From: Myxococcota bacterium
GTDB lineage: Bacteria; Myxococcota_A; UBA796; GCA-2862545
NCBI GenBank assembly: GCA_039208735.1
Contig: JBCCQY010000090.1
Span: 1-36,378 of the forward strand
Direction of reading: 5' to 3'
Length of the DNA stretch: 36,378 bases
The notes under the pieces are model-generated. The model did no database searches and was not told the origin of the DNA. It was given only the letters and a program-made list of their open reading frames with translations. Below, in pieces: positions 3 to 19,527 of this stretch (position 1 is the stretch's first letter; each line of letters opens with the position of its first letter). The translations under genes were made by a program, and so were the position numbers.

Positions 3-1190
3 ACGAAGTTCGTTCGGGTCCGCCTCGACAAAGTCACGAACCTCATGTCGTTGGCCGGCGAAATCGGCCGGGCTCTCGGAACCGTACTGGACCTCCCTGC
101 GGTGCGGGCCGAAATCGAACGCGAGGATGTCGGTGCCGTCGCGGACCGCCTCGAAGGTCTGATTCGCGATCTGCAAGACGGAAGCGCGAGCCTTCGCCTC
201 GTCCCCATTTCGAACGCCTTCGCGCCACTGAATCGCGCGGTTCGCGACCTGTCGATGCGGACCGGAAAGCCCCTCGAGTTGACCACCGAGGGCGAAGACA
301 TTGAGATTGACAAGCTGATGGTGGAGGCGCTGACCGATCCGCTGATTCACCTGGTGCGAAACGCCGCGGACCATGGCATCGAGCCCCCCGATGTACGGGC
401 CGACATGGGCAAGCCCAAGGGTGGGCGCCTACACCTGTCGGCCCATCACCGGGGTGACCACGTGATGGTGCTCATTCAAGACGATGGACGCGGTCTTGAC
501 CGGCAGGGCATCCTTGACAAGGCCATTCGCCAAGGGCTCATCACGCCTGAGGTCAGCGCCGAACTCCCCGATCGGGACGTCTGGGAACTCGTCTTCAAGT
601 CCGGCTTCTCCACCGCATCCGGGGTCTCCGAAATCTCCGGGCGAGGGGTCGGCATGGAGGTGGTCCGAAGCTCGATCGTGGCTCTAGGAGGGACGGTCCG
701 CATCCAAAGTGAAAAGGGCCGCGGCACCACGGTCCAAATGATCTTGCCGCTTACGCTGGCCTTCCTCGATGGGATGGTCGTGCGGTCGGGCGAAGTCACC
801 TACGTGATTCCCATCACCAGCATCGCCCAGGTGTTCCGTGCCGAAGTCAAGGATGTCGAGCGCGTCGAGTCCGAACGCATGGACCTCATCCACGTAGGCG
901 ACGAACTGGTCCGTGGACTGTGCCTCCAGCGCTTCTACGCGCCCGAGAAGCACCCCGAGCCCGTCGATTGGATCGGCCGACTCGTGGTGGTCGTTCGAAC
1001 TTCACGGGGCATGCTCGCGATTCCCATCGACGAGCTGCTCGGGCATGAGAAGGTCACGATGAAGCCGCTGACAGGTCCCCTTGGCGGCATTCGCGCCAGC
1101 GCGGGCTGTGGCCTGCTCCGTTCGGGCGGCGTCGCCATCGCGCTGAACTGCGAATACCTCAACGAACAGTTGCCGGCGGACGACGCTTAG
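3..1190 (+). CDS. cheA: Chemotaxis histidine kinase CheA, 5'-truncated by the window edge
   Basis: Frame is open from position 3 (TKFVRVRLDKVTNLMSLAGE, dimerisation domain). HATPase motifs DPLIHLVRNAADHGIE, IQDDGRGLD and GFSTASGVSEISGRGVGM, then a C-terminal CheW-like domain (LPLTLA…). Confidence 0.95.
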   Translation, partial: TKFVRVRLDKVTNLMSLAGEIGRALGTVLDLPAVRAEIEREDVGAVADRLEGLIRDLQDGSASLRLVPISNAFAPLNRAVRDLSMRTGKPLELTTEGEDIEIDKLMVEALTDPLIHLVRNAADHGIEPPDVRADMGKPKGGRLHLSAHHRGDHVMVLIQDDGRGLDRQGILDKAIRQGLITPEVSAELPDRDVWELVFKSGFSTASGVSEISGRGVGMEVVRSSIVALGGTVRIQSEKGRGTTVQMILPLTLAFLDGMVVRSGEVTYVIPITSIAQVFRAEVKDVERVESERMDLIHVGDELVRGLCLQRFYAPEKHPEPVDWIGRLVVVVRTSRGMLAIPIDELLGHEKVTMKPLTGPLGGIRASAGCGLLRSGGVAIALNCEYLNEQLPADDA

Positions 1191-1953
1191 CCAGCACATT
1201 CACCCCGCTAACGCCGAACTTTCGGGCAACAGCCTCTTTGGAGGTGCCTTCGAAGGTGTCGAAGCGATGGGTGACGCGAACCGATGTGAAGTCCAACTCA
1301 TCGAGCAAACGAAGAAGCTCTGCCTCCGGCAGAGCACCACCGATTCAAGCCGCCCATAGATCGATGTCCGAACGAATCCCCTCCGACAGCTCACTCGCCA
1401 CCACGATGTCCGCGAACTGAAGCCGTCCCGTCGGCTTGAGGACTCGCGCAATCTCCCCAAATGCGACCTCTTTGTCGGGAGCCAGGTTCAGCACACCGTT
1501 GGAGATGACCACATCAACGCTGGCGTCGGGCAAAGGCAGCGCCATCACATCGCCCTCGAGCACGGACACCTGGGGCAACCCTTCGGCGGCCTTCCGAGCC
1601 CGGTCGCGCATCGACGCCGTAAAATCGACACCAATGACCTTCCCCGTTGGTCCCACGGCCTGGGCCGCAACAAGCAGGTCCGTGCCGGTTCCCGAACCGA
1701 TGTCCACCACGGTCTGTCCGGTCGTCAACGGAGCGATGACATGGGGGTTGCCGACCCCGGCGAACGAATCGGTGACCTCGGCCGGCAGCTCCGACAGTAC
1801 CCGGGGGTCGTAGCTCAGGCGCTCGACAGCAAACGACGCTCCGCGGTGGAAGTGAAAGTCACCCTCTGGCTCGAGGGCAACGCGGTGGTAGAGTCGACGA
1901 ACCTCCTCGCGCAGTCGCGCACGGTCGAGGTCGATGGGACAAGCGTAGGCCAT
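1159..1953 (-). CDS. ArsM-like SAM-dependent methyltransferase, putative selenoprotein (U at TGA 1345-1347), 264 aa
   Basis: ATG at 1953 preceded by AGGAGG. SAM motif VVDIGSGTGTD and DVVISNGVLNLAPDK. The TGA lies in DLWAA*IGGAL, matching the LWxGCIxGAL motif of ArsM-like proteins. The frame continues 61 codons (IGGALPEAELLRLLDELDFTSVRVTHRFDTFEGTSKEAVARKFGVSGVNVLAKRRPPATVR) to TGA 1159-1161, and a SECIS-like hairpin follows the internal TGA. Confidence 0.85.
1317..1335 (-). promoter_or_regulatory. Putative bacterial SECIS element of the methyltransferase
   Basis: mRNA reads UGA-AUCGGUGGU-GCUCUGCC-GGA-GGCAGAGC: a perfect 8-bp stem with a G-initiated apical loop 17 nt after the UGA. Confidence 0.75.
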
Positions 1954-2001
1954 GGGTCCTCCTTGCCCCCTCGATGTCACCGAGCGGTCCTTACCACAGG
2001 C

Positions 2002-5000
2002 TTACTGCTCGGCGAGGACCACCCATCCTTCAATCCCCGCGGCCCCCAATCGGTTCATTGCCCCCTCCGCCGCCGCTTCGAGCGCTGCAGCATCGGTCGG
2101 CTTCCCAAGTTCACGAAGGGCGTGGGCCCACACCTGCCGAGTCCGGGCCAATTCGTAGGGCGCCGCGGCCTTGTCGTAGGCCTCGGCCGCGGCCCGCAGT
2201 GCCTCAATGGCATCCGCAGGGGCCCCTCGCGCGACCTGCAACCGACCCCGGGCTTGGGTCGCCATCCCGACCCACGCGAGGCTTCCGTACTCATCGGAAA
2301 GCGCCTCGAGTTCACGGACATGGACTTCGGCCTGGTCCAGGTCGCCGGCCGCGATGGCTACGCGAACGGCCTCAGGCAACAGCAACGCACTGCAGGTCAC
2401 GCACGCCCCATGGCCAGCCGCCACCGCAGCCCCGACCTCCATACACTGCATCGCGGCTGCAATATCCTTAGCCGCGAGCCGATTCCGCGCCATCGAGGCG
2501 TGCATGCGTGTGAGGCAGTGAGACCGCATGGTGGCGCGTTCCGCGACCGCCACGCCATCCGCCAGGATCTCCCAGGCTTCATCGAGTCGACCCATCGCGG
2601 TAAGGAGGACCCCCAGTCGCTGCTGAGACAACGATTCACCCGAAGCCGAGCCGAGTTCACGGTACAAGGTGATGGCTCGTTGAAGGTCTTGCTCGGCCTC
2701 AGCCCAGTCGCCGGATTGGTACGACAACGCACCGCCAAAGTTCAGGCAGAGCGCCTCGGCGCGAGGGGCTCCCATGCGTTTGGCCTGCCCCCGGGTACGG
2801 GCAACCATGTCGATGAGCTGGGCATGTTCGCGATCACCATACAGGTGATACTCCCATAGTCAAAGATGAACGTCGAACGACTGCGCGACGTCGACGGGCC
2901 CTCCCACCAGGGCTTCGCGTTGCGCTTCGTAGCGCTCTCCTTCGTGCCACGACCCAAGCGAATGGCACGCCAGCGCCAGCATCTCGTAGCCACGAGCAAT
3001 CGATTTAGGGTCGCGCGTGCGTTCGGCAGCCGCCAAACAGCTCTCGGCCACCGCATAGGCCTCATCGTGGCGGTTTTGGTGCCATCGCAGCTGCGCCAGG
3101 TAGTACAGCGTGTCGGTGAGCTGAGCGTCGTCGTCGCTGGCCTCGAGCGCTTCGAGCGCCGCCTGGATGCGAACCTCAGCGGGCTCGAGATGGCCGCTCG
3201 TAATGAGGGCCAGCCCCCCGAGCCGCAATGCACGGCCTCGATTCGCCGGACTGGGCGCCCAACCAGCAGACCGCAACTCCGCCGCCCGGTCAAGCGAGGC
3301 CACCGCTGCCTCAAGCTGGGACAGCAACAGCTGGGCTTGTCCAAGTCCAAGCAGGATTTCAAACATCTGCGAATCCGCCGGCTGGTCCCCGAGCAGTTCG
3401 AGCGCCTCGTTGTAGAACGCCACCACCTCGCGCAGACCGGTCTGCTGGCGCGCGCGTTGGGCGGCTTCAATCAAGTACGGAATGGCTCGGTCCACGTCAT
3501 TGGCCAGCCGATGGTGCCGAGCCAACCGCTCGACCCGGTCCGACAGGCGGGGCCACCGCTCCTCGATGTTTCGAGCCACCTCGCGATGCACAAGACGTAG
3601 TCGTGCCGATGTGATGCTGCTGTGGACCGCCTCCTGGACCAACGCATGCCGAAACCGGTATCGGTCGTCGTCCTCGCGGAGCAGGTCCGCATCGAGACAG
3701 CGCTCTAGGGCATCGAGCGCCGATTCCGATCGGAGGCTTGCCACATCCGCCGCCAAGTCGAATTCGAAGTGTTGCCCCACCACCGCGGCGGCCCGCATCA
3801 GTGCGTTCGCATCGTCACCCAGACGATGGATGCGATCGAGGACCGCATCTCGAAGCTCTCCGGGTAAGGCGATCTTTCCCGTTTCCGACCACGCGTGGAC
3901 CAGCTCTTCGACGTAGAACGGGTTCCCCTCCGCCAGATCGTGGATGCGGGCAACGATTGGCGTGGTGGGTGCGTCATTGACCAACTGAGCAATGAAATGG
4001 GAGGTCGTGGCTTGATCGAAGGGCAGTAGATCAATGCGCGTCAGCAACCGTTCTCGATGCAGGGCCGCCACCACGCTGTGCAACGGTGCACCGACGATGA
4101 GCCCTTCGGGCCGCGCAGTGGCGATGAGCACAACCCCCGAAGTTCGCGTTGTGCGCGCCAAGTAGTGGAGCAGGTGAAGGCTCGACCCATCGGCCTGGTG
4201 GAGATCGTCGAGCACCAAACAGACTCGTCGACCCGCTCCAATCGCATTGAGCGCCTGCTCCACGGCCTGGTAAAGCCGCAGCGTGTCGTCCTGAACGGCG
4301 CCCGAAGGCTCAAACGCAAGAAAGGGATTGTCGCCACTACCCGACATTCGGTCCCACGCCGTGAATGCTTCGATGAACGGTGCGAACGGCGGCATGCCTT
4401 CGAAGTCAAGGCCTGCGCCCGCCAGCAAGACGGCGCCATCGGCCTCGGCGAATCGTGCGGCCTCGACCGCAAGACGGGTCTTGCCAATACCAGCCGTGCC
4501 CGTAATCAAGAGCACGCCGCCTTGGGCCTGCGAAAACTCGCGAACTTCATCAAGTTCGGCCTGACGCCCAAGGAGGGGAGCCGGGTCGCGAGTCCCCAAG
4601 AGGATGCGAGAGAGGCGCGGCCAGCCAGACTCCTGCGGCGTAGGCGTACTCCGCGACCGAGACGCCAACGACTCGGCCAGTGCGACGGTGGCTCCAGAGG
4701 GCGAAACCCCACGTTCGGCCAGCGCCTGTTCACAGGTGGTGTATTGGTCCATCGCCTCGGCGATTCGACCGGTGTCCGCGAGCCCTCGCATGAGCAAACG
4801 ATGGGCCTCTTCGATGGCCGTTTCGATGGCCAGCAAATGGCGCAAGACCGCGGTCGCTCGGTCCGGGTGACTGGCGAGGGCCCGGCGCGCGCACCGCAGG
4901 GAGCTGTCGATGAAGTGTTGGCGCAAGGCCTCGATCCGGGCGTCCAACATGTCGAGATCGAGTCCCGGGGTGCCCCGATAGAGGTCGAGCGCCTCCGGAT

Positions 5001-5328
5001 CGTCCGCATGGCAGCCGGCCTCGAAGGCCGCCACATCCACCCAGACGTCCTCGGCGAGCCGCACCTGTGGACCATCGATCGAGACCCAAGGCCCACCTCC
5101 GAGCGCCTTGCGAACGTCGTGCAGTGCACGATGCAGGTTGTTGGCACCTCGGGAGGGGTCCTTACCGGGCCAAAATCCCGAGATCAGATCGGCCTTCGGC
5201 ACCGCGTGCCCCTCGGCCACCGCGAGGGCCGTGAGCAGATCAACGGCTCGCTTCCGGCGCCAGGTGGCGGCCGGAAGGGGTCCATCATCGAGTCGCACTT
5301 CGAACCGACCTAGGACCGACAACCGCAT
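2002..5328 (-). CDS. SARP/BTAD-domain STAND (AAA ATPase)-TPR transcriptional regulator, putative selenoprotein (U823 at TGA 2860-2862), 1108 aa
   Basis: N-terminal wHTH/BTAD (LSVLGRFEV…WRRKRAVDLL…EEAHRLLMRGL), Walker A GTAGIGKT, Walker B LVLDDLH, GNPFYVEEL, FRHALVQE, then TPR-like helices. ORFs 2860..5328 and 2002..2808 are in the same frame and joined by SFDVHL*LWEYHLYGDREHAQLIDMVAR with one TGA, followed by a SECIS-like hairpin. Confidence 0.8.
2833..2849 (-). promoter_or_regulatory. Putative bacterial SECIS element of the STAND regulator
   Basis: mRNA reads UGA-CUAUGGGAGU-AUCACC-UGUAU-GGUGAU: a 6-bp stem with a GU-containing loop 16 nt after the UGA. It may extend via a bulged U and a G-C pair. 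Confidence 0.65.
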
Positions 5329-5439
5329 CCAATCTCCATTGTTCGGCAGACCTTACCGCATGGGGAGGGTCCTGGGTCAGCCAGGAGTAAGGAGGACTCG
5401 GCGACAGTTCGAGTGCCAAGCAAAAACGGAGGCATTCCA

Positions 5440-5811
5440 ATGTCGCTCAACAACAATGCCAAGCTCGTCGTCGTTCTCACTCAACATGGTGGCCATGACA
5501 CCGCAACGGTTGGGTTTACCATTGCCAACGCGGCGCTCTCCCAAGGCAAGGACGTGGCAATCTTCCTGACGTCGGACGCCGTGGACCTCGCCCGTCAGGG
5601 CGCGAATGACCTAGCTGAAGTCCGACCCTTCCGCCCTCTAGCCAGCCTCATCGAGGACTTCACGGCCCATGGCGGCGTGGTATGGGCGTGCTCGCCTTGC
5701 TTCCAACATCGTGGCCAGCGCGTTGAAGACAACGTCGATGGGGTGACCGTGACGGGCGCGGGACCCATGCTCGAATGGATCGACGCCGGCGCGTCGACCA
5801 TCTGTTTGTAA
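5440..5811 (+). CDS. DsrE/DsrF-family protein
   Basis: GGAGG before ATG 5440. DsrE-like pattern TVGFTIANAAL…VAIFLTSDAVDLA…GGVVWACSPCFQHRG (CxxC). Confidence 0.85.
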   Translation: MSLNNNAKLVVVLTQHGGHDTATVGFTIANAALSQGKDVAIFLTSDAVDLARQGANDLAEVRPFRPLASLIEDFTAHGGVVWACSPCFQHRGQRVEDNVDGVTVTGAGPMLEWIDAGASTICL

Positions 5812-5817
5812 GCCGCC

Positions 5818-6993
5818 ATGCCCCCGGTCTACCTCGACCATGCGGCCACCACTCAGGTGGACGAATCCGTCCTCGCGGCGATGCTGCCCGCGTTCCGTGA
5901 GGCCTTTGGCAACCCGGCGAGCCGGGGTCATGCGATAGGCCGACGCGCATCAAAAGCGGTCGATGACGCGCGATTTGCTGTCGCAACCTTGATCGGTGCG
6001 CGATCGATGCGCGACATCCTGTTTACCTCGGGGGCCACCGAGGCCAACAACCTCGCACTGAGCGGGCTTCTTCGGCCGGGGGCCCACCTCATCACCGCCC
6101 GCACGGAGCACAAGTCCGTTCTCGATACGGCATTGCACCTGACCCAGCACGGGGTCACGGTCACGGTGTTGGACGTGCAACCCGATGGTCGGGTCGACCC
6201 GGCCGCCGTCGCAGCCGCGCTCCGCCCCGAGACCGCGCTGGTCAGTCTGATGTTGGTGAACAACGAAACCGGTGCCCGACATCCCATCGAGGCTATCTCT
6301 CCGATCGTCCAGCAGGCCGGCGTGCCGCTGCACGTCGACGGCACCCAGGCGGTGGGTCAACTTCCCGTGGAGGTGCAGACCATGGGGATCGACCTGCTCA
6401 GCCTCTCTGGCCATAAGCTGTATGGCCCCATGGGTGTCGGAGCCCTGTACATTCGGCGGGAAGTGCGCCGTCATCTCGTCCCCATGCTCCGCGGAGGAGC
6501 ACAAGAGGGCGGGACACGGGCGGGTACCCTCAACGTGCCGGGCATCGTGGGCCTGGGCGCAGCCTGTCAACTTGCCACAGACGTGTTGCCTGCCACAGAA
6601 CCACAGATTCGGCACCTCCGGCAGCGCCTATGGGCGGGCCTAAAGCCACTCGGCCGGGTGCATCGTCAGGGGCCAACCGACGAAGCAGCCCTCGCCCCTG
6701 GGATCCTCAACGTCGCGTTTGAAGGCGCCGACCGCAGCGCCGTACTCCCCCGAATCCCCGAACTCGCGGTGTCGGGCGGCAGCGCGTGCACCGAAGGGTC
6801 ACTCGCCATCAGCCATGTGTTGGACGCGATGGGCGTCTCTGCCGAGCGCGCCAAGACGGTCATCCGCTTCAGCCTCGGTCGCCACACCACAGCCGAAGCT
6901 ATCGATTTCACGATCGACCGGATGACCGCAGCCGTGCAAGCGGTCCGTCAGAGCGATTCGAGGCACAGGGATGCTTCACCGCGGTCAAGGTGA
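5818..6993 (+). CDS. NifS/IscS-like (group I) PLP-dependent cysteine desulfurase
   Basis: YLDHAATT, FTSGATEANN, VNNETG, HVDGTQ, SGHKLYGPMGVG (PLP Lys), RAGTLNV and SGGSACT (catalytic Cys). Starts 6 nt after the dsrE stop. Confidence 0.93.
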   Translation: MPPVYLDHAATTQVDESVLAAMLPAFREAFGNPASRGHAIGRRASKAVDDARFAVATLIGARSMRDILFTSGATEANNLALSGLLRPGAHLITARTEHKSVLDTALHLTQHGVTVTVLDVQPDGRVDPAAVAAALRPETALVSLMLVNNETGARHPIEAISPIVQQAGVPLHVDGTQAVGQLPVEVQTMGIDLLSLSGHKLYGPMGVGALYIRREVRRHLVPMLRGGAQEGGTRAGTLNVPGIVGLGAACQLATDVLPATEPQIRHLRQRLWAGLKPLGRVHRQGPTDEAALAPGILNVAFEGADRSAVLPRIPELAVSGGSACTEGSLAISHVLDAMGVSAERAKTVIRFSLGRHTTAEAIDFTIDRMTAAVQAVRQSDSRHRDASPRSR

Positions 6994-7865
6994 ATGGAAT
7001 CCCAGGTTCGACCGCACTCGTGTTGGTCGTCTTCCATCGAAGGACAGGTGTCACGAATCGCGCAGTAATGGCGCATCTGCAGCACGTTCTCACTACTTCC
7101 GTCGAAGTAGAACGTGCCCAAGTACACCCGATCCGGGATGCGACCATCGTTGTCGTAATCCTGAACGATGTACTCACCGTTGCAATTTCCTTCGAGCGGC
7201 AGACCCGCAGGATTTGCTTCATTGTACACGCGGTAGTAGCCGGACTCGTTGCGCTGGCTGGCCCCCGATTCCGCCACCTCGTTCTTGTAGACGGCGTACC
7301 ACCCCTCGCGGGGCACATCTTCGAGGGTCACTTCTACCGTTGCGGAAAAATCGCGCTTGCTAATCCCCTTTCGCGGCCGCCTATAGTTCACCGATGAATC
7401 ACAATCATCGGCGTCAAACACGCGAGGGAGCGTGTCGCTGATGGCAATTCCTGAAAGGTCCACCCCGGTCACGCCGAAGAACCCACCAAACACGGTGTTG
7501 AGCGCACGGTCCCCGGTACGGCGGACGGTGGCTTGCGTGGCTTCGATTTCGGCGTTGCTCACTAACGTTCCACTCTTGCGATCGACGGTGCCCCAGGTCA
7601 GCGGCTCTAGCACGAACGTGCCTCCGTCCTTGGCGACGTAGGCGCGGACGAGTTGATCCGCGATGGCCTGTGCCTCGGAGGTCGTGTGACCTTTGTTGTA
7701 GGCAACGATGGCCGTCTGCGCGGCGGAGTACGCCACGAGTTCGGCTTCACTGGCCGCCAATGACGCGCGTGTCAGGTCGATCGAAAGTGCGCCCACGGCG
7801 ATGACCGGAACCACGCCTGCCGCAAGCAACATCGCATATTGTCCCCTTCGGCCTTGAAGCTGCAC
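6948..7865 (-). CDS. TadG-like (Flp pilus assembly) protein with an unassigned C-terminal domain
   Basis: GTG 7865 after GGAGG. RRGQYAMLL…GALSIDL…SAAQTA resembles the TadG N-terminal pseudopilin-like segment. The C-terminus is Cys/Asp-rich and probably extracellular. Confidence 0.6.
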   Translation of the reverse strand: MQLQGRRGQYAMLLAAGVVPVIAVGALSIDLTRASLAASEAELVAYSAAQTAIVAYNKGHTTSEAQAIADQLVRAYVAKDGGTFVLEPLTWGTVDRKSGTLVSNAEIEATQATVRRTGDRALNTVFGGFFGVTGVDLSGIAISDTLPRVFDADDCDSSVNYRRPRKGISKRDFSATVEVTLEDVPREGWYAVYKNEVAESGASQRNESGYYRVYNEANPAGLPLEGNCNGEYIVQDYDNDGRIPDRVYLGTFYFDGSSENVLQMRHYCAIRDTCPSMEDDQHECGRTWDSIHLDRGEASLCLESL

Positions 7866-7990
7866 GAATCCACCTCCACAGCGCAATGGATCACGCCGAC
7901 TCCTCAGACGTACCAACGTTCGGAAAATCCGCCAAGAAATTGCCCGAGATCTATTCTTTCATAAGACCACACATTCGCCAGGTTCGCGAT

Positions 7991-10456
7991 TTACGCGTCT
8001 CGGCCGACGCGGGCAATCGCGTCACGGATCCGCGAGTTGCCGAGAAGTCCACGCTCCTGGGCCAATCGCCGCGCCGCCTCGACCATCTCGTCGGCTTCGG
8101 GGTCTTCATCGACCGATCGCAAGGCGGCGGCAAGCTCACAATACGCCTTGATGTGGAGATAGGCACTTCCCAATTGGCCAAGTTCGTCCACACCCTTGCG
8201 CAGCAGCGACAAGGCTTCCGTTGGCGCACCCTCTTGCAAGCGCAACTTGCCGTAGAGCAGGTTGCCGACCGCTCGTGTGATGGCGAGAGGGCCCGTCGCG
8301 GTCAACGCCCGGGCTTCGGTTAGGCGAATGCGCGCCTCTGGGGCGTCCTCAAGTTCAAGCAACAAGTCGGAGGCCGCAATGAGGCACGAGGCGAGGCCTC
8401 CCGCCTCCCCAAGCGCCCGGTGGGCATCCGCCCCTTCCGCGTAGGCGGCCACTGCATCAGCCGCCTTCCCTTCAACCCGGTAGGCCGCCGCCACATTCGC
8501 CAAGAGCAACGCCAAGTCAGGACGAGCCCCCACCTCGATGAGCCCCGTACGGGCCTGTTCGTTGTGGTGGGTCGCGAGCCCTGGTTCACCAGATTGGACG
8601 TACTGAATTCCGAGTTCAAGATGCGCATGGGCGGCTTTGTAGACTTCGCCGGCACCTTCGAGCACCCGTACCGCACCCGCCGCCACCCGACGTGCTTCAT
8701 CGAAGTTCCCTCGCTTACGAGCTCGCGTGGCAAGCGACAATTGGATGACCCCTTGAAGTCGAGCGGAAAGGGCATCGCGCAGGGCTTCCGTCAACATCGA
8801 AGTGGCGATTTCGCCTTCCCCTTGGGCCGCGAGTTGGCCCGCGCGACAATACACGCCAAGCGCCCGGACATCGGGTTCTTGGGCGAGTTGCGAGACCTCG
8901 GCAAGCTCGGCATCCATACCCGTCCGATCGAGGTCAAAACGCGCCTGGCAGCGGCACAAAATCGCGCGGGCCCGATCGTTCGGGGCCAGGTTGTCGAGCG
9001 CCAAGACCGCATCCGCCAATGGCAGGACGACTTCGACAAAGCCGCCGAGTTGTGCGGCTCGACGGACCCCCTCGAGGCATCCTACGGCGACGTCTGGCAT
9101 GGCCAGCTCGGTGGCCGCACGACATGCCGCGATGAGGTTCGCCGTTTCGGTCAGATGCGCCTTTCGCTCGGGTAGCTGCCCAAACCGCGCGAGTGCTGTG
9201 GCATGTGCACTTCGCAGATTTGCATCCTCGAACCCCGCTCGGCGACGCACGCTGTGGAGCAGGGTGAGTCGTGGCCGCCCCTTGATGGGGGTCCGCTGGA
9301 TCATGGACGCTTGCGCGAGGCTCTGCAGAACATGAACGACCGGTCGCCCATCGGCCGGAGGGGACAACACCGCTTCGGCCAACGGGAGATCGAAGCCTTC
9401 TTCGAAGACCGACAGTTCGGTCAAGGCGAGCCGCTCGACCGGGTCGAGCAACGCAAACGACCGTTCCAAGACATCGTCGAGCGACAACGGCCCAGCGCCC
9501 GCCTTGATGCGCCGGGACAATTCCGACAGCTCGAAGACGCCAAGCCACGGGGCCACGAGTTCGATGGCCAGGGGAAGGCGATCGAGGCGTTCCACCAGCC
9601 CGAGTACCTCGTCGTCGGCGCCCACCGTCGTCCATCCTTGGCGAGCGGCGTGGTGCTGCAGCAGGCTCACCGCATCCGCGGGCGGAAGCGGGCTCAATCG
9701 AACCACATGTTCGTCGCGCAGACCCAACACCCGTCGCGATGTCACGACCACACGGAGGTTCGAAGCGACAGACCTCAGCCCTGCAACCACTTCGGCCACC
9801 GCTTGCGTGACCGGCTCCGCTTCGTCGATGACGAGCAACCGGGGCGACGGCTCGAGGGCGAGGGCTTGGCCAAGCGCCGCCACCTCCGCCGTTCCGAGTG
9901 GGATTCCTGCCGCCCTGGCCACCCTCTGGACAATGTCCCGAACGCCACGTGCATCGAGCACCGACACCGTCACGGCGCGGTAGTCCACCAACCGGAGCAC
10001 AAGCTCACGAGCCGCCCGCGACTTCCCGACGCCCGCAGGTCCGGTAATCACCACGAGCGGCGTCTGTTTGACGAGGGCAACGAGCGACGACACGACGTCT
10101 TCCTGCCCCACCCACCGGTCGTCGGTGCGCATCTCGGGAAGCTCGGGTTCGGGCCGAGGCACAAAACGGTAGCCCTGACCGCGAACGGCCAACAGGTGGT
10201 CCGGCGCCCACGGCTCGAGTTCCACCTTCTTACGCAGGGTGACCATCGTCTTGTCCACCGCGCGCGAGACCACCGTGGCCGCATAGCCGAACACTTCGAC
10301 GAGAAGTTCCTCTCGGGGCACCACTTGGTGAGGGCGCTCCGCCAGGTACCGCAACAGTCCAAGTTCCCGACCGGTGAGGCGACGCGTCTCGCCACCTCCT
10401 TCGACGGAACCCGAGCCAAAATCAACGTTGCAACGGAAGAGCGAGACGCGTTCCAC
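7991..10456 (-). CDS. OmpR-type winged-helix + ATPase + TPR transcriptional regulator
   Basis: LTGRELGLLRYL…VVPREELLVEVFGY…VRGQGYRF (Trans_reg_C), Walker A GPAGVGKS, VVVTSRRVL, LDRLPLAIEL, TPR-like C-terminus. Confidence 0.88.
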   Translation of the reverse strand: MERVSLFRCNVDFGSGSVEGGGETRRLTGRELGLLRYLAERPHQVVPREELLVEVFGYAATVVSRAVDKTMVTLRKKVELEPWAPDHLLAVRGQGYRFVPRPEPELPEMRTDDRWVGQEDVVSSLVALVKQTPLVVITGPAGVGKSRAARELVLRLVDYRAVTVSVLDARGVRDIVQRVARAAGIPLGTAEVAALGQALALEPSPRLLVIDEAEPVTQAVAEVVAGLRSVASNLRVVVTSRRVLGLRDEHVVRLSPLPPADAVSLLQHHAARQGWTTVGADDEVLGLVERLDRLPLAIELVAPWLGVFELSELSRRIKAGAGPLSLDDVLERSFALLDPVERLALTELSVFEEGFDLPLAEAVLSPPADGRPVVHVLQSLAQASMIQRTPIKGRPRLTLLHSVRRRAGFEDANLRSAHATALARFGQLPERKAHLTETANLIAACRAATELAMPDVAVGCLEGVRRAAQLGGFVEVVLPLADAVLALDNLAPNDRARAILCRCQARFDLDRTGMDAELAEVSQLAQEPDVRALGVYCRAGQLAAQGEGEIATSMLTEALRDALSARLQGVIQLSLATRARKRGNFDEARRVAAGAVRVLEGAGEVYKAAHAHLELGIQYVQSGEPGLATHHNEQARTGLIEVGARPDLALLLANVAAAYRVEGKAADAVAAYAEGADAHRALGEAGGLASCLIAASDLLLELEDAPEARIRLTEARALTATGPLAITRAVGNLLYGKLRLQEGAPTEALSLLRKGVDELGQLGSAYLHIKAYCELAAALRSVDEDPEADEMVEAARRLAQERGLLGNSRIRDAIARVGRDA

Positions 10457-11010: not shown

Positions 11011-14000
11011 TCAGCGAAGGTCGAGCAAACGCCACGTGCCGTTGGCCATGCCATCGCGCTCGACACGGCCGTAGGCTTCTTTGGCGCGCGAATCGAGGCC
11101 GAAGTGCTCGGCGATCCGTCCCTCGACGAAGCCCCACTCGGGACCCAGCCGCACGTAGGTGGTCCGGGCTTCTCGCCACGTTCGCACCGCTGCATCGAAC
11201 GCATCGGTAAACACCTCGAGGCACGCCCGGGTGTGCAGCTCGGCCATGCTTGCCCCCTTCAGGTGCTCCGCCCACTCGCCCGCATCTTCCGGCCGACCCT
11301 CGATGAGCATCGCCCATACCGCATCGTTCGCCACCCGCGTCTTGAGCGTGTCATCGTCGGCCACCAACTTCCGCAATTCGTCGAAACGCCCGAGTGAAAG
11401 CGCAAGTTCAATGTTGGCATCCGCGTTGTCGAGCCGCTCGGCCAGCGCTTCCGCTTCCTTGTTCCGACCCGCCTGGACGAGGGTCTCGATTTGGGCGGCG
11501 GGGAACAACTCTTCACTGTGCCCTTCAAGCACGGCCAGCTTGCACTTCAGCTCTCCGCGACAGCTCTGGACCGCCGGTCCCACCAGATCGTCTGGGACTT
11601 CGGCCAGTCGGTCGTGGTCACGCTTTTCTGCCCCCAACACCATCTTGGCCCAAAGCCAGTGATGGACGGGCTCCTCGGGAAGCTCCTCAACGCTGGCTCG
11701 GTTGGACGCCACCGCCACCTTCTCGAGCACCGTTTGAAGGTCGTCATCGCGCTTCTTGGCCAACGCGCGCTCCAGGTCTCGGGCAATGCGCTCGTAGGCC
11801 TCGGTGTCCACCGCCGTGACGCGAGGTTCACCCTTCTGTTGCTCGACATAGAAGGTCGCCGTGGTCTTCTTGGGTGGGTCCGACAACTGGACAAACCATC
11901 CCGTGGATTCGTCACCGGCGACCCGGGCCTTATCGTGCACCATCTTCGCCAGGATCATCCCTGCGAATGTGCGCGTTGTGGGAATGGGCATCTCAAGTTC
12001 CAACAACGCCCGGAACGTGTCCTCGATCCGTATGGCATCCCGTAGATCCTTTGGAATGTCCTCTTCACGGCGCTCGACCTTGGCCCGCATGAGCTTGGCC
12101 ACCGCCTCGACCGGCGTCGTGGCGGGCTTCATGGGGTCGCCATGGATGCCCAAGTCGTCGATCTTCTCGAGCCAGCCCGTACTGGCCTCGGCAGGCAACA
12201 TCGCGCGGAGTTCAGGCACGAACAGCCCAATGTGCGACAGCAACACCCCAGACGCTGAGACCACGTCTTCCGGCAGGTTCTCAAGGGGTTGCCCTTTGAG
12301 CATACGGGCAACCGCCATCGCGGCCGGGACATAGTCCTTGGGGAGTTCGAGTCCTGCCACCCCTTCGACATCACCGTTCATCAGACGACCCGCGAGAGCG
12401 AGCTGCTCGAAGTCCCGAGGGGTATCGAGTTCGCGGGCCGCATACGCCTCACCGAGTTTGGCCAACGCCTCGAATTGGCCCTCAAAGAACAGGAGCCGCG
12501 CCAGTTCGACCGGAGCAAAATCGGGGTTGGCCTCGAACGCGAGTTCGAACGTCTTGATGGCCTCTTCAGGCTCGCCTCGAAACGCCAAGGCATCGCCCAG
12601 CGCCCGCAGCACCAAGACATCTTCAGGCCGCACGCGGTCGGCCTGCCGATACGACGCGACGGCCTCCTCTTCAAAGCCCGCGCGCCACTTCACATGCCCA
12701 TCAAGCACCCACTCATGGGCCAACTTGTCCTTGTCGCGAGGCACCGCGTCGGAAAGTGCCGTCCACGCTGTGGCGTGCTCATCGCGGTCCATCGCCGCGG
12801 CCGCGGGATGAACGGCCCGAACGTTGGTGGTGCGCGACAGCTCCAAAAACGCCTGTCGAACAGCTTCGACCTCGCTCACTTCGAACCGGCCGTCCCCGAT
12901 GTCGAGCGTGGCGGACCGGCGCAGGACCGTGTCATCGCCAAGGGCATGCTCAAGCACGAGCGTTGCATCGCCAAATGTCCACGTTTGTGGTTCCACATCG
13001 CCCGTGAGTTCAAACCCTCGGGGCAACCGGATGACATCCTCGAGTTCGACCCGTCGTGGCGACACTTCGACCGGAATCGACCGACCCGCCAGCGGGTCCT
13101 CCGCCGACCCTGGCCGAACGTTGAAAATCTCGGGCAGTGAGCCGACAAGGGGCTGCAGCCCGATGCGTGCCCACGCATGTCCGATCACGGACTGCGAACG
13201 GCGGGGCGATGCCTCGAGCGTCATCGTGAAGGGACCGGCCACGGGCGCCCCCATGGTGCCCTTGCCCCATGGCGAGCCGTAGGCGCGGGAGGCGTAGTCG
13301 TCGAGCATCTCCTGCTTACGCCCTCGCGCGGCGGTCGAAAACTGATGGTGCAATCCCAACGCGCTGTCCCCTTCCGCGTAGGTCTTCTCGACCAACGAGC
13401 CCTCGCCCGGCACCGAAATGTCGAGCATCCTCGTCTCGCGGTAGAAATCACCCGTATGTGGCGTACGAACCAGGTCCTCTCCACGGGCCGAAATCGGCAG
13501 GGCCCACCGACCCTGGGATTGACCGGGCAACTTGCCTACCGGGCTGAACCGCGAGGTGGGATCGATCCAGAGATCCAGCTCGGGGATGTGAACAATGGCA
13601 TGGTTAAACCAGTCCAACGAGGGAAATGCGGGGTCGGTATCGGACGGCCGTCGGTCGGCCCACAAGAGCGCAGGTCGCGCCTCGACCCCGGCCGAGGCAA
13701 GCAACGTGACCAACAGGGCTGACTTGTCTTTGCAATCGCCGTAGCCAAGCCGCAGTACGTCGGATGGCGTGTACGGCACGATGCGTCGGACGCCGAACTC
13801 CACCCCCGTGTAGCGGACATCCTCCCGCGCAATCTTGGCCGCGACCTCGACCTTGGCTCGCGTGTCCTTCGCGGCCTGAACCTGGCTGATGGCCGCGTCG
13901 AGACCCGCCGCGGACATCGATTCCGAAATGAGGTCGGCATACGCCCTCGAAACCGCTTTCCACGAGCCTCCGGTGCCTACGACCAACGAGGGAATGGTGG

Positions 14001-14736
14001 GCGTGCCGTGGGGCACGGCGTCCGGCGGAGCCTCAAAGGGTGGCGTCTCAGACGTCACGGTCACCCGAATGATGCGCTGCTTTCCTGCTTTGCGCTGGGC
14101 GATCTCATAGGTGCCTTCTCGGCCGTCTGCCCCTCGGGTCTCGACGGTCAGGTCCGTCCCGACAGGCACGCGAATCTCGACCTGTCGCTCACCAACGTTC
14201 TCACGGCCATAGAGCGGCACGATGACGATTCGCCCCGAGCTGCGCGTCGCGGTCACATCTCGGTGGACGGACTCAAACTCGATGACCGCACCCTTGGTCA
14301 CCTGCGGCAGCGGAGCCCACAAATCCCGCGTGTCTTGCAACACCGTAGGATCGTCGTTGTTCTGAACCGCCTCCTGAAAACGGGTGGCGTCGAGCACGTG
14401 TTCTTCGCCGTCGGGCGTGATGACGCGGGCGCGCAACTCCGGCCGCGATTCCAATTCGGGCTTCCAACTGACGCCTACGGTCGTCCACTCCTTGACCGCC
14501 TCGTCGGACTGCACCACCGCCACCGTTCGGTGCGTGCTCGTCAATCGACCGTCCGCGTCAATGTCGTGCCGGGTGGTCCGCGTGAGCGTCCAAGCTCCCA
14601 CGTCCTCGGGGGCCTTGGCCGCCATCTTCAGCAACTTGTTCGGCGAAAGGTCGAAGCTATCGGCGGCGTAGGCGGGCGACCCAAGCCCGGCCAGCATCCC
14701 CCATCCAACCAACATCCAATGCAAACGGGCCTCCAC
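11011..14736 (-). CDS. Secreted DUF3857/transglutaminase-like protein with TPR region
   Basis: Signal peptide (…PAYAAD), DUF3857-like N-terminus, Cys-His-Asp triad motifs GDCKDKSALL, FNHAIV and WIDPT, helical repeat C-terminus. Confidence 0.85.
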   Translation of the reverse strand: MEARLHWMLVGWGMLAGLGSPAYAADSFDLSPNKLLKMAAKAPEDVGAWTLTRTTRHDIDADGRLTSTHRTVAVVQSDEAVKEWTTVGVSWKPELESRPELRARVITPDGEEHVLDATRFQEAVQNNDDPTVLQDTRDLWAPLPQVTKGAVIEFESVHRDVTATRSSGRIVIVPLYGRENVGERQVEIRVPVGTDLTVETRGADGREGTYEIAQRKAGKQRIIRVTVTSETPPFEAPPDAVPHGTPTIPSLVVGTGGSWKAVSRAYADLISESMSAAGLDAAISQVQAAKDTRAKVEVAAKIAREDVRYTGVEFGVRRIVPYTPSDVLRLGYGDCKDKSALLVTLLASAGVEARPALLWADRRPSDTDPAFPSLDWFNHAIVHIPELDLWIDPTSRFSPVGKLPGQSQGRWALPISARGEDLVRTPHTGDFYRETRMLDISVPGEGSLVEKTYAEGDSALGLHHQFSTAARGRKQEMLDDYASRAYGSPWGKGTMGAPVAGPFTMTLEASPRRSQSVIGHAWARIGLQPLVGSLPEIFNVRPGSAEDPLAGRSIPVEVSPRRVELEDVIRLPRGFELTGDVEPQTWTFGDATLVLEHALGDDTVLRRSATLDIGDGRFEVSEVEAVRQAFLELSRTTNVRAVHPAAAAMDRDEHATAWTALSDAVPRDKDKLAHEWVLDGHVKWRAGFEEEAVASYRQADRVRPEDVLVLRALGDALAFRGEPEEAIKTFELAFEANPDFAPVELARLLFFEGQFEALAKLGEAYAARELDTPRDFEQLALAGRLMNGDVEGVAGLELPKDYVPAAMAVARMLKGQPLENLPEDVVSASGVLLSHIGLFVPELRAMLPAEASTGWLEKIDDLGIHGDPMKPATTPVEAVAKLMRAKVERREEDIPKDLRDAIRIEDTFRALLELEMPIPTTRTFAGMILAKMVHDKARVAGDESTGWFVQLSDPPKKTTATFYVEQQKGEPRVTAVDTEAYERIARDLERALAKKRDDDLQTVLEKVAVASNRASVEELPEEPVHHWLWAKMVLGAEKRDHDRLAEVPDDLVGPAVQSCRGELKCKLAVLEGHSEELFPAAQIETLVQAGRNKEAEALAERLDNADANIELALSLGRFDELRKLVADDDTLKTRVANDAVWAMLIEGRPEDAGEWAEHLKGASMAELHTRACLEVFTDAFDAAVRTWREARTTYVRLGPEWGFVEGRIAEHFGLDSRAKEAYGRVERDGMANGTWRLLDLR

Positions 14737-16518: not shown

Positions 16519-16908
16519 ATGAAAACGCTCTGGATGGACCGTCTTGGCAGTATGGCGAGTGCGGTTTGCACGCTCCACTGTTTGGCGCTCGCACTGGCGC
16601 CGGCCCTCATCTCGGTCCTCGGCCTAAGCTTTCTCGCCAACGAAGCGTTCGAATGGGGTTTCTTCACCATTGCAGTAGCCTTTGCGGGCGCCGCGGCCCT
16701 CATCGGATATCGCGTCCACCGAGCTTCCTGGGTGGTCCTCGGGTTTGGATTAGGCATCGTCATGTTGGCCTTTGGGCGGCTCGGCGAAGCGTTGAATCTT
16801 TTTGAAGGCAGCGCACTTTTCGCAATGGCCGGAGGTCTCGTGCTGGTCGCCACCCACCTGGCGAGCTTGCGGCAGTTGCGTGCTTGTTCGAGCGCCGAAT
16901 GCGCGTGA
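16519..16908 (+). CDS. MerC-domain membrane protein
   Basis: GAGGAGG RBS. MDRLGSMASAVCTLHCLALAL (CxxHC) motif, four TM segments, late His. Confidence 0.85.
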   Translation: MKTLWMDRLGSMASAVCTLHCLALALAPALISVLGLSFLANEAFEWGFFTIAVAFAGAAALIGYRVHRASWVVLGFGLGIVMLAFGRLGEALNLFEGSALFAMAGGLVLVATHLASLRQLRACSSAECA

Positions 16909-17891
16909 CCGATTCTGTGCCGGTGACACTCCTCACCGGGTTCCTAGGGGCCGGGAAGACCACGTTGCTCAACCACGTGTTGAGGACCGCAACGGATCGA
17001 CGATTCGCGATCATCGAAAACGAATTTGGTGAACTGGGGATCGACGGTTCACTCGTGGCCACTCCCGTCGAAGCCTTGTTCGAGCTTTCCCAAGGCTGCG
17101 TGTGTTGCACGGTTCGCGATGACCTCGTTGACGTGCTTGTCCAGCTCCTCAACCGGCCAAACCTCGATCACGTGATCCTGGAGACCACCGGCCTGGCGGA
17201 GCCAGCTCCGGTGTTGCAAGTCTTCCAAACGCCGAACGTTCGTGACGGGTTCCACCTCAATGGCCTGATCACGGTGGTCGACGCCGCTCAGGTAGAGCAG
17301 GACCTTGCCGAAACCTCGACGTGTGCGGAACAAATCTCGTACGCCGACCTTCTTGTGCTGAACAAGACAGACCAAGTGCCCTCCGAACGATGGCCTGAAC
17401 TCGAGGCGCGCCTCCATCGCCTCAACCCGCTGGCCCGCATCGTACGAGCCCAACATGGCCAAGTCCCGGTCGATGAGTTGCTTGCCCTTCAACGGCACGA
17501 CGCCTCACACTTAGGGCAAACCAGCGTTCCCCACACGCACCATCACCACCACCATGACGACACCATCGGCTCGGTGGCGCTCGAAGCGGACGGCGACATC
17601 GATATTGGCGCCCTGGACCGCTGGCTTGGCGATCTGACCCGACGCAGCGACATCGATGTGCTTCGCATGAAGGGTGTGGTGGCGGTGGTGGGCCAATCCC
17701 GTCGGTTTGTGTTCCACGGGGTTCGAAGGTCGATCGACGTGCGGCCCGACCGCCCGTGGGGCGACGAGGTCCGGCGCAATCGGTTGGTCCTCATCGGCCG
17801 CGGCCTCGACGCGGAGATGCTGGGCAAAGGCTTCCGAGCGTGTCTGCGGGACGCTTTCGCCCCTTCGGTAAGTGGAGGACTCCGTGGCTAG
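16905..17891 (+). CDS. COG0523/CobW-family G3E GTPase (metallochaperone)
   Basis: GTGA overlap with the merC-like stop. TGFLGAGKTT, IENEFGE, GCVCC, ETTGLAEP, LNKTD, His tract HTHHHHHH and a CobW_C domain. Confidence 0.93.
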   Translation: MTDSVPVTLLTGFLGAGKTTLLNHVLRTATDRRFAIIENEFGELGIDGSLVATPVEALFELSQGCVCCTVRDDLVDVLVQLLNRPNLDHVILETTGLAEPAPVLQVFQTPNVRDGFHLNGLITVVDAAQVEQDLAETSTCAEQISYADLLVLNKTDQVPSERWPELEARLHRLNPLARIVRAQHGQVPVDELLALQRHDASHLGQTSVPHTHHHHHHDDTIGSVALEADGDIDIGALDRWLGDLTRRSDIDVLRMKGVVAVVGQSRRFVFHGVRRSIDVRPDRPWGDEVRRNRLVLIGRGLDAEMLGKGFRACLRDAFAPSVSGGLRG

Positions 17892-19068
17892 TGCTGCCGT
17901 GCTGGATTGGGCGATCATTGGGGGAGGCATTCACGGGGTGCACCTTGCGGCCCGGCTACTCGGTGAGGCGCGCGTCCCCGCCGAAAAGCTTCGCATCGTG
18001 GACCCGGCGCCGTCGTTGTTGGAAACCTGGCGACGTTGTTCGGGCAATGCCGGAATGCGCCACCTTCGTTCACCAGGTGTTCATCACCTCGACCTCGAAC
18101 CCTGGTCTTTGGTGCAATTCGCAGAAGCGAAGGCGGCCGGCGATTCGAAAGGAATGTTTGCGCCACCCTACGGTCGTCCGAGTCGCTCCCTCTTCGCCGA
18201 TCACTGCGCTCGCGTGATTCAGCGCTTCGGGCTCGATCACCGGCATCAACGAGATGCAGCGGTCCACCTCGACCTGACATGCGACCACGTCGGCGTGGGC
18301 CTCCAAAGCGGCACGAAGCTCTTGGCCCGCCACGTGTTGCTCGCCATTGGCTCGGCCAGTGAACTTCGCTGGCCTTCGTGGGCCCTTGCGTTGCGGGAGG
18401 AGGGGGCCCAGGTCCGGCATGTGTTCGACCCAGGCTTCGTGTTGGCTCCCCAGACCCAGCCTTCGCGAGTCGCCGTGATCGGAGCCGGGCTCACGGGGGC
18501 ACAAGTCGCCCTCCGCCTCGCCGACACCCACGAAGTGCACCTCATCAGCCGGCATGCGTTGCGAAAGCACCAGTTCGACAGCGACCCTGGATGGATCGGG
18601 CCCAAGCACATGCGCCGCTTCTTGATGACCGAGGACCCTGACGCCCGGCGCGCGCAAATCACCGCGGCTCGGCACACCGGCTCCATGCCTCCAGACGTCC
18701 ACCGCGCCCTTCGTCGGGCCATGGAGGGTGGCCGCGTTCAGTTTCATCGAGGCACCGTGCAATCCGCCAAGGGTGGCGATGCCCTGACCCTAGGGATCGA
18801 CTCGCAACGCATCCAGGTCGACTCCGTGCTGCTGGCGACGGGATTTGGGTCAGGCCGACCGGGGGGCACGTTGGTCGACGAATTGGTCGACACGCATGCG
18901 CTGCCCTGCGCCTCGTGTGGCTTTCCCATCGTCGATGCCCATCTCCGCTGGCACCCTCGTGTGTTCGTGACGGGGCCACTCGCCGAACTCGAGATCGGAC
19001 CCGTCTCTCGCAACATCGTCGGGGCACGTCGCGCCGCGGAGCGCATCGTCCCTGTCGCGTGCGCCTGA
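17884..19068 (+). CDS. FAD/NAD(P)-binding oxidoreductase
   Basis: Two Rossmann motifs (IIGGGIHG; VIGAGLTG), HLRSPGVHH, LLATGF. Overlaps the GTPase end; start is GTG 17884 or 17872. Confidence 0.85.
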   Translation: MASAAVLDWAIIGGGIHGVHLAARLLGEARVPAEKLRIVDPAPSLLETWRRCSGNAGMRHLRSPGVHHLDLEPWSLVQFAEAKAAGDSKGMFAPPYGRPSRSLFADHCARVIQRFGLDHRHQRDAAVHLDLTCDHVGVGLQSGTKLLARHVLLAIGSASELRWPSWALALREEGAQVRHVFDPGFVLAPQTQPSRVAVIGAGLTGAQVALRLADTHEVHLISRHALRKHQFDSDPGWIGPKHMRRFLMTEDPDARRAQITAARHTGSMPPDVHRALRRAMEGGRVQFHRGTVQSAKGGDALTLGIDSQRIQVDSVLLATGFGSGRPGGTLVDELVDTHALPCASCGFPIVDAHLRWHPRVFVTGPLAELEIGPVSRNIVGARRAAERIVPVACA

Positions 19069-19143
19069 TGCACACGAACCTTGCTTGCCGTGCATTGGGC
19101 GCACGTGCGAGCACGGTCTACGACGAAGGCAGTGGAGGCTGCC

Positions 19144-19527
19144 TTGGAACTCCTTCGTCGGCACATCTTTCTCTTTGACGGTCTCGGTGCCGTCCTCAGC
19201 ACCTTCGGTACGGCCGTGCTGCTACCGCGCTGGTCATCGTGGATCGGCTTGCCCGTTGACGTGCTGTGGGCGCTGGCTGTGCCCGCCGCGCTCTTCGCGA
19301 CGTACTCCCTTTCGTGCTGGTTCTTCGGCGCTCGGCTCTGGCCCTGGTTGGCGGTCATCATGGTGGGCAACCTGGCGTATTGCGTAGGCGTAGCCTTCGT
19401 AATGGCAAACTTCGGATCGGGTCTCACGGCGCTGGGGGCAGCCTACTTCGGAGGCGAAATGCTGGTCATTGCCGGTGTCGTTGGCCTTGAAGGCTATGTG
19501 TTACGAACGTCCCCTCCAGCGGCATGA
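19144..19527 (+). CDS. Hypothetical four-TM membrane protein
   Basis: Hydrophobic ORF (FLFDGLGA…NLAYC). TTG 19144 has GGAGG upstream; start uncertain. Confidence 0.6.
   Translation: MELLRRHIFLFDGLGAVLSTFGTAVLLPRWSSWIGLPVDVLWALAVPAALFATYSLSCWFFGARLWPWLAVIMVGNLAYCVGVAFVMANFGSGLTALGAAYFGGEMLVIAGVVGLEGYVLRTSPPAA

Follow-up and report, generated by a model that had tools for sequence, protein, structure and literature searches.

A selenoprotein family, apparently unlisted, among the large SARP/STAND activators and its predicted operator and regulon

MalT, a STAND transcription activator, binds maltotriose. CstR, SqrR/BigR, FisR and sHdrR regulate dsrE, tusA, rhodanese and persulfide dioxygenase-type genes through reactive cysteines; their folds are unrelated to that of the regulator described here, they are mostly repressors and they contain no selenocysteine (Sec). 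To our knowledge, nearly every selenoprotein described from prokaryotes is an enzyme, a carrier or a transporter. The accessible parts of PMC10936776 and PMC10972967 describe the binding site of AfsR as two 11-bp repeats over the -35 region, and Sec-containing arsenite methyltransferases (ArsM) with a UxxG motif are listed in Table 1 of PMC13188914. The locus described here lies in a contig of 36,378 nucleotides from a Myxococcota bacterium (JBCCQY010000090.1, assembly GCA_039208735.1), the whole of which is referred to as the window. Two adjacent genes on the minus strand encode a SARP-type STAND regulator (2002-5328) and an ArsM-like class I S-adenosylmethionine (SAM) methyltransferase (1159-1953). 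Each contains an in-frame TGA followed by a hairpin whose loop starts 16 nt (regulator) or 17 nt (methyltransferase) downstream, as had been noticed in a first-pass annotation made from the sequence alone.

The selenocysteine codon of the regulator

Read with TGA as Sec, the regulator has 1108 amino acids and consists of an N-terminal winged helix-turn-helix (wHTH), a BTAD domain (112-220), an NTPase domain and a TPR sensor. The wHTH assignment is based on a match to the AfsR model starting at residue 1 and on PF00486 in homologs. The NTPase motifs are intact, with Walker A at 277-284, Walker B at 372-377, sensor-I at 402-406 and GxP at 468-470, so that all the elements that define a large SARP/STAND protein, from the wHTH and BTAD to the P-loop NTPase and the TPR, were found. 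By sequence comparison the architecture is that of a SARP with a STAND NTPase and a MalT-like TPR domain. The sensor contains Sec823 together with the conserved residues H750, C788/H789, H821, C861, H937 and C976xxC979.

The Sec codon (2860-2862, minus strand) lies in the motif FDVHL-U-LWEYHLY. A DNA pattern that admitted TGA, TGC or TGT at codon 823 gave at least 120 metagenome loci; the matches listed comprise 104 with TGA and 16 with a Cys codon (12 TGC and 4 TGT), and many of them are related Chloroflexota-type sequences, some duplicated, so that these counts overstate independence. The UGA aligns with Cys in homologs, and conservation extends to both sides of it. A protein search with the C-terminal region gave 120 matches, of which 93 carry Cys at residue 823 and 13 end directly before it, one of these being the very gene of the window. 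Trp, Arg or Gly, which the first-pass annotation had named as residues that would contradict Sec, were found at this position in none of the 120. With a Chloroflexota-type query, 96 of the best 120 of 436 matches stop exactly before the site and 24 have Cys. The best 150 of the representatives at 50% identity comprise 70 with Cys, 21 ending before the site, 14 with other residues and 45 that start after position 823 or miss it. The databases thus hold the regulator family cut at the Sec codon. The source names of the matches include Anaerolineae, Chloroflexota, Ktedonobacterales, Polyangiaceae, Labilithrix and Myxococcota. A quick tree computed without the site itself mixes Sec and Cys rows and requires five changes or more between them, and some Cys clades lie inside Sec clades. 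Subject to the position of the root, this pattern fits a repeated change from Sec to Cys.

The genome of origin (9.4 Mb, 92.7% complete, 6.15% contamination) contains the Sec machinery that the proposal of selenoproteins implied. selA, selB and selD score above curated cut-offs, tRNA-Sec (selC) is present, and the bin carries these genes on contigs other than that of the locus. The SelD of this genome itself has a TGA, in CAG-U-ASK. selB was also found in another genome (G401), while the host of a distant Cys member of the regulator family (G400) has no selB above the cut-off. TGA is used as a stop as well, in genes neighbouring the locus.

The hairpin of the regulator (2833-2849, minus strand; ATCACC-TGTAT-GGTGAT) has a 6-bp stem and a 5-nt loop with G at loop position 2. 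It passes the rules for a bacterial Sec insertion sequence (SECIS), namely a loop 16-37 nt after the UGA, G in the first two loop positions and a stem of 4-16 bp. In 89 distinct TGA contexts the loop G is present in all 89 and the mean minimum free energy is -8.9. The codons of the hairpin are nearly fixed in these contexts (TAT 89, CAC 89, CTG 88, GGT 89 and GAT 81), while further along the same genes their usage is 0.46, 0.61, 0.44, 0.20 and 0.46, respectively. A perfect 6-bp stem occurs in 80 of the 89 TGA contexts and in none of the 16 Cys contexts; synonymous sites of the element are fixed as long as the Sec codon is TGA and vary freely where it is a Cys codon.

The reading of UGA823 as a Sec codon is weakened by the kinship of the loci and by two further observations. 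Neither hairpin of the locus, taken singly, folds better than shuffles (z from +0.45 to -1.38 in four folds), and the excess over chance comes from the comparison with homologs. The remaining 14 of the 120 protein matches, mostly of one divergent clade, have other residues at position 823, and the residue is therefore dispensable for the fold. Taking these points into account, we are nearly certain from the comparative evidence that UGA823 is recoded as Sec and that the regulator is a selenoprotein.

Three variants of the family were seen among the homologs. A clade that includes Anaeromyxobacter entries (P0091-P0118) has lost the Cys at the Sec site and kept H937 and the CxxC. A subfamily of about 720 amino acids (P0073-P0093, L027, L028, L086) combines a SARP with the Cys sensor domain and gives no NTPase domain match. 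In one protein of 1287 amino acids (P0373), which likewise ends just before the Sec site, BTAD and NTPase are separated by a Ser/Thr kinase domain.

The methyltransferase

Read with its internal TGA (1345-1347, minus strand) as Sec, the methyltransferase has 264 amino acids, with U203 in a UIGG motif. A second TGA, at 1159-1161, is its stop, and homologs end there too. The 3' end of the gene overlaps that of a convergent cheA-like gene by 32 nt (1159-1190). Homologs from regulator neighbourhoods whose sequence spans this codon number 28, the gene itself included, and have TGA there in 22 cases and TGC in 6. The SECIS (1317-1335, minus strand) has an 8-bp stem and a GGA loop (GCTCTGCC-GGA-GGCAGAGC). 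Among 17 distinct TGA contexts, 16-17 form any given pair, and 4 of the 8 pairs show two-sided changes; pairs 2-5 are formed in only one of four Cys contexts. UGA203 is a Sec codon with a SECIS by these sequence comparisons. The earlier claim that both genes encode selenoproteins is therefore upheld by the Sec machinery, the interchange of TGA and Cys and the SECIS elements conserved among homologs, with the presence of selenium itself as a prediction. Standard annotation does split or shorten both genes, as had been foreseen: translation table 11 gives a regulator cut to 822 amino acids, a separate piece of 268 amino acids and a short methyltransferase. In a genome of the same genus (G703), a homolog of the methyltransferase (L132, 1426-2274) has Gly at the Sec position.

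In the alignment with CmArsM, U203 falls on C224, and the class I SAM-binding fold and the (C/U)xxG motif are present. Arsenite methyltransferases supply the best-matching models as well as the nearest solved structures. The positions equivalent to C72 and C174 of CmArsM are Val and Gly, and Cys was found at these positions in none of 29 neighbouring methyltransferases. The rule given in the accessible part of PMC5552862, at least three of the CmArsM cysteines 44, 72, 174 and 224, thus excludes the protein from ArsM, with Val at 72, Gly at 174 and Sec at 224. It scores 201.5 bits against a cut-off of 263 for NF008823 and lies below all ArsM-type cut-offs. The same genome contains a separate ArsM with equivalents of C72, C174 and C224 (G000 C54, 34269-35506, minus strand). 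That gene adjoins a small Cys-bearing HTH-like regulator.

By its sequence the methyltransferase is an ArsM-fold enzyme with one selenolate, a UxxG ArsM-like selenoprotein of known type that should not be filed as ArsM. Methylation of a metalloid had been among the functions first proposed. Arsenite as the substrate is doubtful because C72 and C174 equivalents are absent and the separate ArsM has them.

The predicted regulon and its inducer

The regulator and dsrE are separated by a divergent intergenic region of 111 nt (5329-5439). The DsrE-family protein (5440-5811, plus strand; 123 amino acids; PF02635, E 7e-16) contains C84xxC87. An IscS/NifS-type pyridoxal phosphate (PLP) cysteine desulfurase of 391 amino acids (5818-6993, plus strand; PF00266) follows after 6 nt and has K200 in SGHK and C324 in SGGSAC, which we take to be the PLP lysine and catalytic Cys motifs of cysteine desulfurases. 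The genes that flank the locus are a CheA-like kinase gene and an open reading frame (ORF) without a Pfam hit, so that this pair stands without isc or suf genes beside it, as first described.

A GTAAG pair with 11-nt spacing and at most one mismatch was found in 31 of 57 distinct regions 3' of the regulator stop. A spacing of 22 nt occurs in 14 of these regions and other spacings in at most 6, while coding regions gave 0/57 and shuffles a mean of 0.4 and a maximum of 3. In many loci the last, degenerate repeat is followed by a TAnnnT box about 10 nt on. In the window the pairs lie before the methyltransferase (2005-1990, minus strand; GTAAG-N6-GTAAG; predicted operator and promoter 1975-2005) and before dsrE (5376-5391, plus strand; GTCAG-N6-GTAAG; predicted operator and promoter of dsrE-nifS 5376-5406). 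The two sites share the longer motif GTAAGGA-N3-CTCGG-N-GACA, which the genome has nowhere else, although the motif was derived from these very sites. Chance probably accounts for two looser GTAAG pairs, at 765 and at 20443. The TAA stop of the regulator is part of the first GTAAG repeat in the window (2002-2005, minus strand) and in another locus (L006, 11408). The same operator with similar targets is found in loci with Cys alleles (L034, L036, L041, L053, L063, L066 and L084).

The repeat pair before each of the two arms of the locus makes them look co-regulated. The size of the shared divergent region was as first described; the methyltransferase does not rely on that region alone, having an operator-like site of its own. 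By sequence comparison the 11-nt GTAAG repeat is conserved before adjacent target genes, with the geometry of AfsR sites, an 11-nt period upstream of the targets. The case for an operator is tempered by the 26 of 57 regions without a strict repeat pair, by -10 boxes that match poorly at both window sites and by the region upstream of dsrE in L006, where no 11-nt pair was found. We consider it highly probable that the regulator is an activator of the repeat-bearing promoters.

Neighbouring genes were counted in 61 loci of at least 2.5 kb, the present one included and some of them duplicates. ArsM-like genes were found in 29, OsmC genes in 20 and DsrE genes in 16, and the regulator, an ArsM-like gene and DsrE occur together in 12. 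Where at least 2.3 kb downstream is available, 24 of the 32 Sec regulators have an ArsM-like gene beside them and none of the 10 Cys regulators does, a difference inflated by kinship. In a named Deltaproteobacteria metagenome-assembled genome, in which selB is present, dsrE, a TGA regulator and a TGA methyltransferase are consecutive genes. The proposed four-gene module is not supported as a conserved unit and is borne out for three of its members. For NifS there was no tblastn match in 121 related loci, 19 of them with wide flanks, and the dsrE-nifS linkage recurs on one contig of a related strain (run X2) from another study. The suggestion that the NifS-type protein is a Sec lyase was not borne out, with 143.9 bits against a cut-off of 525 for SclA (NF040779). 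It scores 380-398 bits with IscS/NifS models, also below their cut-offs, and is IscS/NifS-like. This gene, a local member only, is probably co-regulated, since it begins 6 nt after dsrE behind the operator. The first-pass annotation was thus right on Sec and on a core of three genes, and gave NifS too large a part.

Other neighbours include a two-domain rhodanese, an MBL-rhodanese, a molybdenum sulfite-oxidase-family gene and an FMO-like gene (L024), TusA (L028) and SBP56 (L038). In L014 a SelD gene (2412-3500, minus strand), with an in-frame TGA of its own (HGAG-U-ACK), is followed by DsrE/DsrF/DsrH and an MBL-rhodanese. AhpD-like, DinB/mycothiol-transferase-like, PIG-L, hydrolase, SCO4226-like, DUF1326 and PpoB2 genes were also found, and 35 of 54 ORFs in one neighbour set are without a Pfam hit, some of them surely not genes. 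Three recurrent small proteins were noted: a membrane protein of about 180 amino acids directly behind the operator in 10 loci (L088, 1964-2512), a His/Cys-rich protein of about 86 amino acids in 6 loci (L055, 5415-5681) and a protein of about 98 amino acids in 4 loci (L057, 9626-9919).

The neighbour set suggests the handling of reactive sulfur or selenium, and that the locus is a local regulon, in which a selenoprotein activator senses a reactive chalcogen and induces genes for sulfur and selenium handling, has in our view a little better than an even chance. By analogy with AfsR and MalT, the regulator would be auto-inhibited at rest, the inducer would react with or bind in the TPR sensor, and nucleotide exchange would free the SARP domains to turn transcription on from the repeats that overlie the -35 region. 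From the conserved residues and the neighbours, the inducer would be a reactive chalcogen species, most likely a persulfide or polysulfide, or else selenide or a selenopersulfide; for a reactive sulfur or selenium species the balance is modestly favourable. The selenolate of Sec823 may catch it, aided by a His/Cys site of H937, C976 and C979 that is probably metal-holding or a redox pair. DsrE would act as carrier of sulfur or selenium, loaded at this locus by the desulfurase, and the single-Sec methyltransferase might methylate a thiol, sulfide or selenide. Rhodaneses, MBL-rhodanese, TusA, the sulfite-oxidase-family protein and SBP56 would be induced elsewhere for sulfur or selenium transfer and oxidation. 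Several neighbours speak less well for a chalcogen. Those specific to sulfur or selenium (rhodaneses, SBP56, SelD, TusA) occur in one or a few loci each. In L014, 1.2 kb separate selD from the Sec methyltransferase that precedes it, and the targets seen most often (OsmC, methyltransferase, an unassigned membrane protein, SCO4226-like) have no specificity for sulfur.

The same activator might instead sense a thiophilic metal(loid) or organometal, such as As(III), methyl-As, Sb or Hg, which the methyltransferase would then methylate. The affinity of the methyltransferase to arsenite methyltransferase models and structures fits this, as do the Sec/His/Cys ligands, which suit soft metals, the SCO4226-like (nickel-responsive) and PpoB2 (copper chaperone) neighbours and the FMO-like gene. 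We consider it rather unlikely, given the 29 methyltransferases that all lack C72 and C174 equivalents, the failure of the cysteine rule, the separate ArsM and the annotated neighbours, none of which is a gene for the transport or reduction of arsenite or mercury. An organic electrophile, thiol or oxidant sensed through Sec823, with a general thiol-reactive stress or xenobiotic regulon, would account for the OsmC-like, AhpD-like, DinB/mycothiol-transferase-like, PIG-L and hydrolase genes behind the operator, and MalT-type TPR domains, whose fold the sensor matches, bind organic ligands. This is unlikely, as it leaves DsrE, TusA, the rhodaneses, the desulfurase and SelD unexplained; moreover, the OsmC alignment keeps one Cys throughout, with Thr/Ser at what we take, from the usual OsmC motif, to be the resolving site.

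The UGA could also itself be the sensor, with an 822-amino-acid product lacking most of the sensor domain at low selenium and the full-length protein when selenium is available, so that the regulon tracks the supply. The stop removes the last 286 residues and leaves SARP and NTPase intact, selD and SBP56 are among the neighbours, and removal of the TPR alters AfsR activity according to the accessible part of PMC10936776. The Cys alleles with the same operator and similar targets argue that the chemistry of the residue, not the recoding, is the conserved function, and make this very unlikely as the main role; such a switch could form a secondary layer. That the TGAs are true stops of pseudogenes or split genes, assembly errors or recoded otherwise, for example as Trp or Gly, agrees with the database entries listed as split and with hairpins that are not significant alone, and is extremely improbable in view of the TGA at one codon across clades with Cys in the rest, the SECIS-shaped synonymous constraint confined to TGA, the full Sec machinery beside TGA stops in neighbouring genes, and a contig assembled independently from run X1 with zero differences to the window, which may come from the source sample.

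Elsewhere in the window, an ORF of 322 amino acids without a Pfam hit (6948-7916, minus strand) has an N-terminus that presumably resembles a Tad/TadG pilus-type protein. A second wHTH-NTPase-repeat (STAND-like) regulator of 821 amino acids (7994-10456, minus strand) has no sequence kinship to the Sec regulator. A protein of 1241 amino acids combines DUF3857, transglutaminase-like and TPR domains (11011-14736, minus strand). Consecutive genes for a CobW/COG0523-type GTPase, an FAD oxidoreductase and a LysR regulator (16884-20453) are possibly a metal-starvation unit.

Comparison with known systems

No SARP, STAND or TPR entry was found in Table 1 of PMC13188914 (2026), which covers 119 prokaryotic selenoprotein families; its only regulator-named entry is a small FmdB-family protein. 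A term search in deep-Sep (PMC12013277) did not find the family, the word 'regulator' is absent from the main text of BSepDB (PMC13326102), and no model of NCBIfam r20 scores above its cut-off for three family members. A literature search that left most subscription journals outside found no paper on such a Sec regulator. The regulator represents a real selenoprotein family, apparently unlisted, that belongs with the large SARP/STAND activators and for which an operator and a regulon can be predicted. To the prokaryotic selenoproteins it would add a transcription activator of 120 kDa with predicted binding site and targets and, if true, a selenoprotein that acts as a DNA-binding sensor and not as enzyme or carrier. 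The many database entries that stop at the Sec codon can be corrected. A candidate ligand site can be named in the sensor domain of a bacterial STAND protein, a group for which few inducers are known, and since natural Sec and Cys alleles coexist, the contribution of selenium to signal sensing becomes directly testable. The wider picture is an even bet: widespread NLR-like (STAND) activators in which Sec serves as receptor residue within a novel type of TPR sensor built on His, Cys and Sec, and which would read reactive sulfur or selenium directly and control a regulon with a Sec thiol or selenol methyltransferase, and in which UGA read-through may add a selenium-supply switch.

The conserved SARP-like operator, which in the window precedes both the methyltransferase and dsrE-nifS, is new; the UxxG ArsM-like methyltransferase type is already known. 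With the Sec arsenite methyltransferase families NF008823, NF041536, NF041537 and NF047649 the methyltransferase shares UIGG and the Sec at C224, scoring 197-227 bits; it differs in lying below every cut-off, in its single domain and single Sec, in the absence of C72 and C174 and in its STAND operator. The SAO and Tso operons are, like this locus, clusters of selenoprotein genes hidden by truncation, and for neither does the accessible part of PMC13188914 list a DNA-binding regulator that contains Sec.

MalT shares the fold of its sensor, domain III, with the regulator at 16% identity, but it has no Sec and a C-terminal LuxR output, whereas the SARP of the regulator is N-terminal. AfsR and the other large SARPs (SARP-NOD-TPR) of Streptomyces are similar in domain order, in intact STAND motifs and in 11-bp direct repeats upstream of targets. 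As an AfsR equivalog (NF053617) the family is rejected, with 32.7 bits for this regulator and 62 bits against a cut-off of 1430. It differs from the large SARPs in its occurrence in other phyla, in its GTAAG repeat, in a sensor lined with Sec, Cys and His, and in its predicted targets, which are sulfur and thiol genes where theirs are antibiotic clusters.

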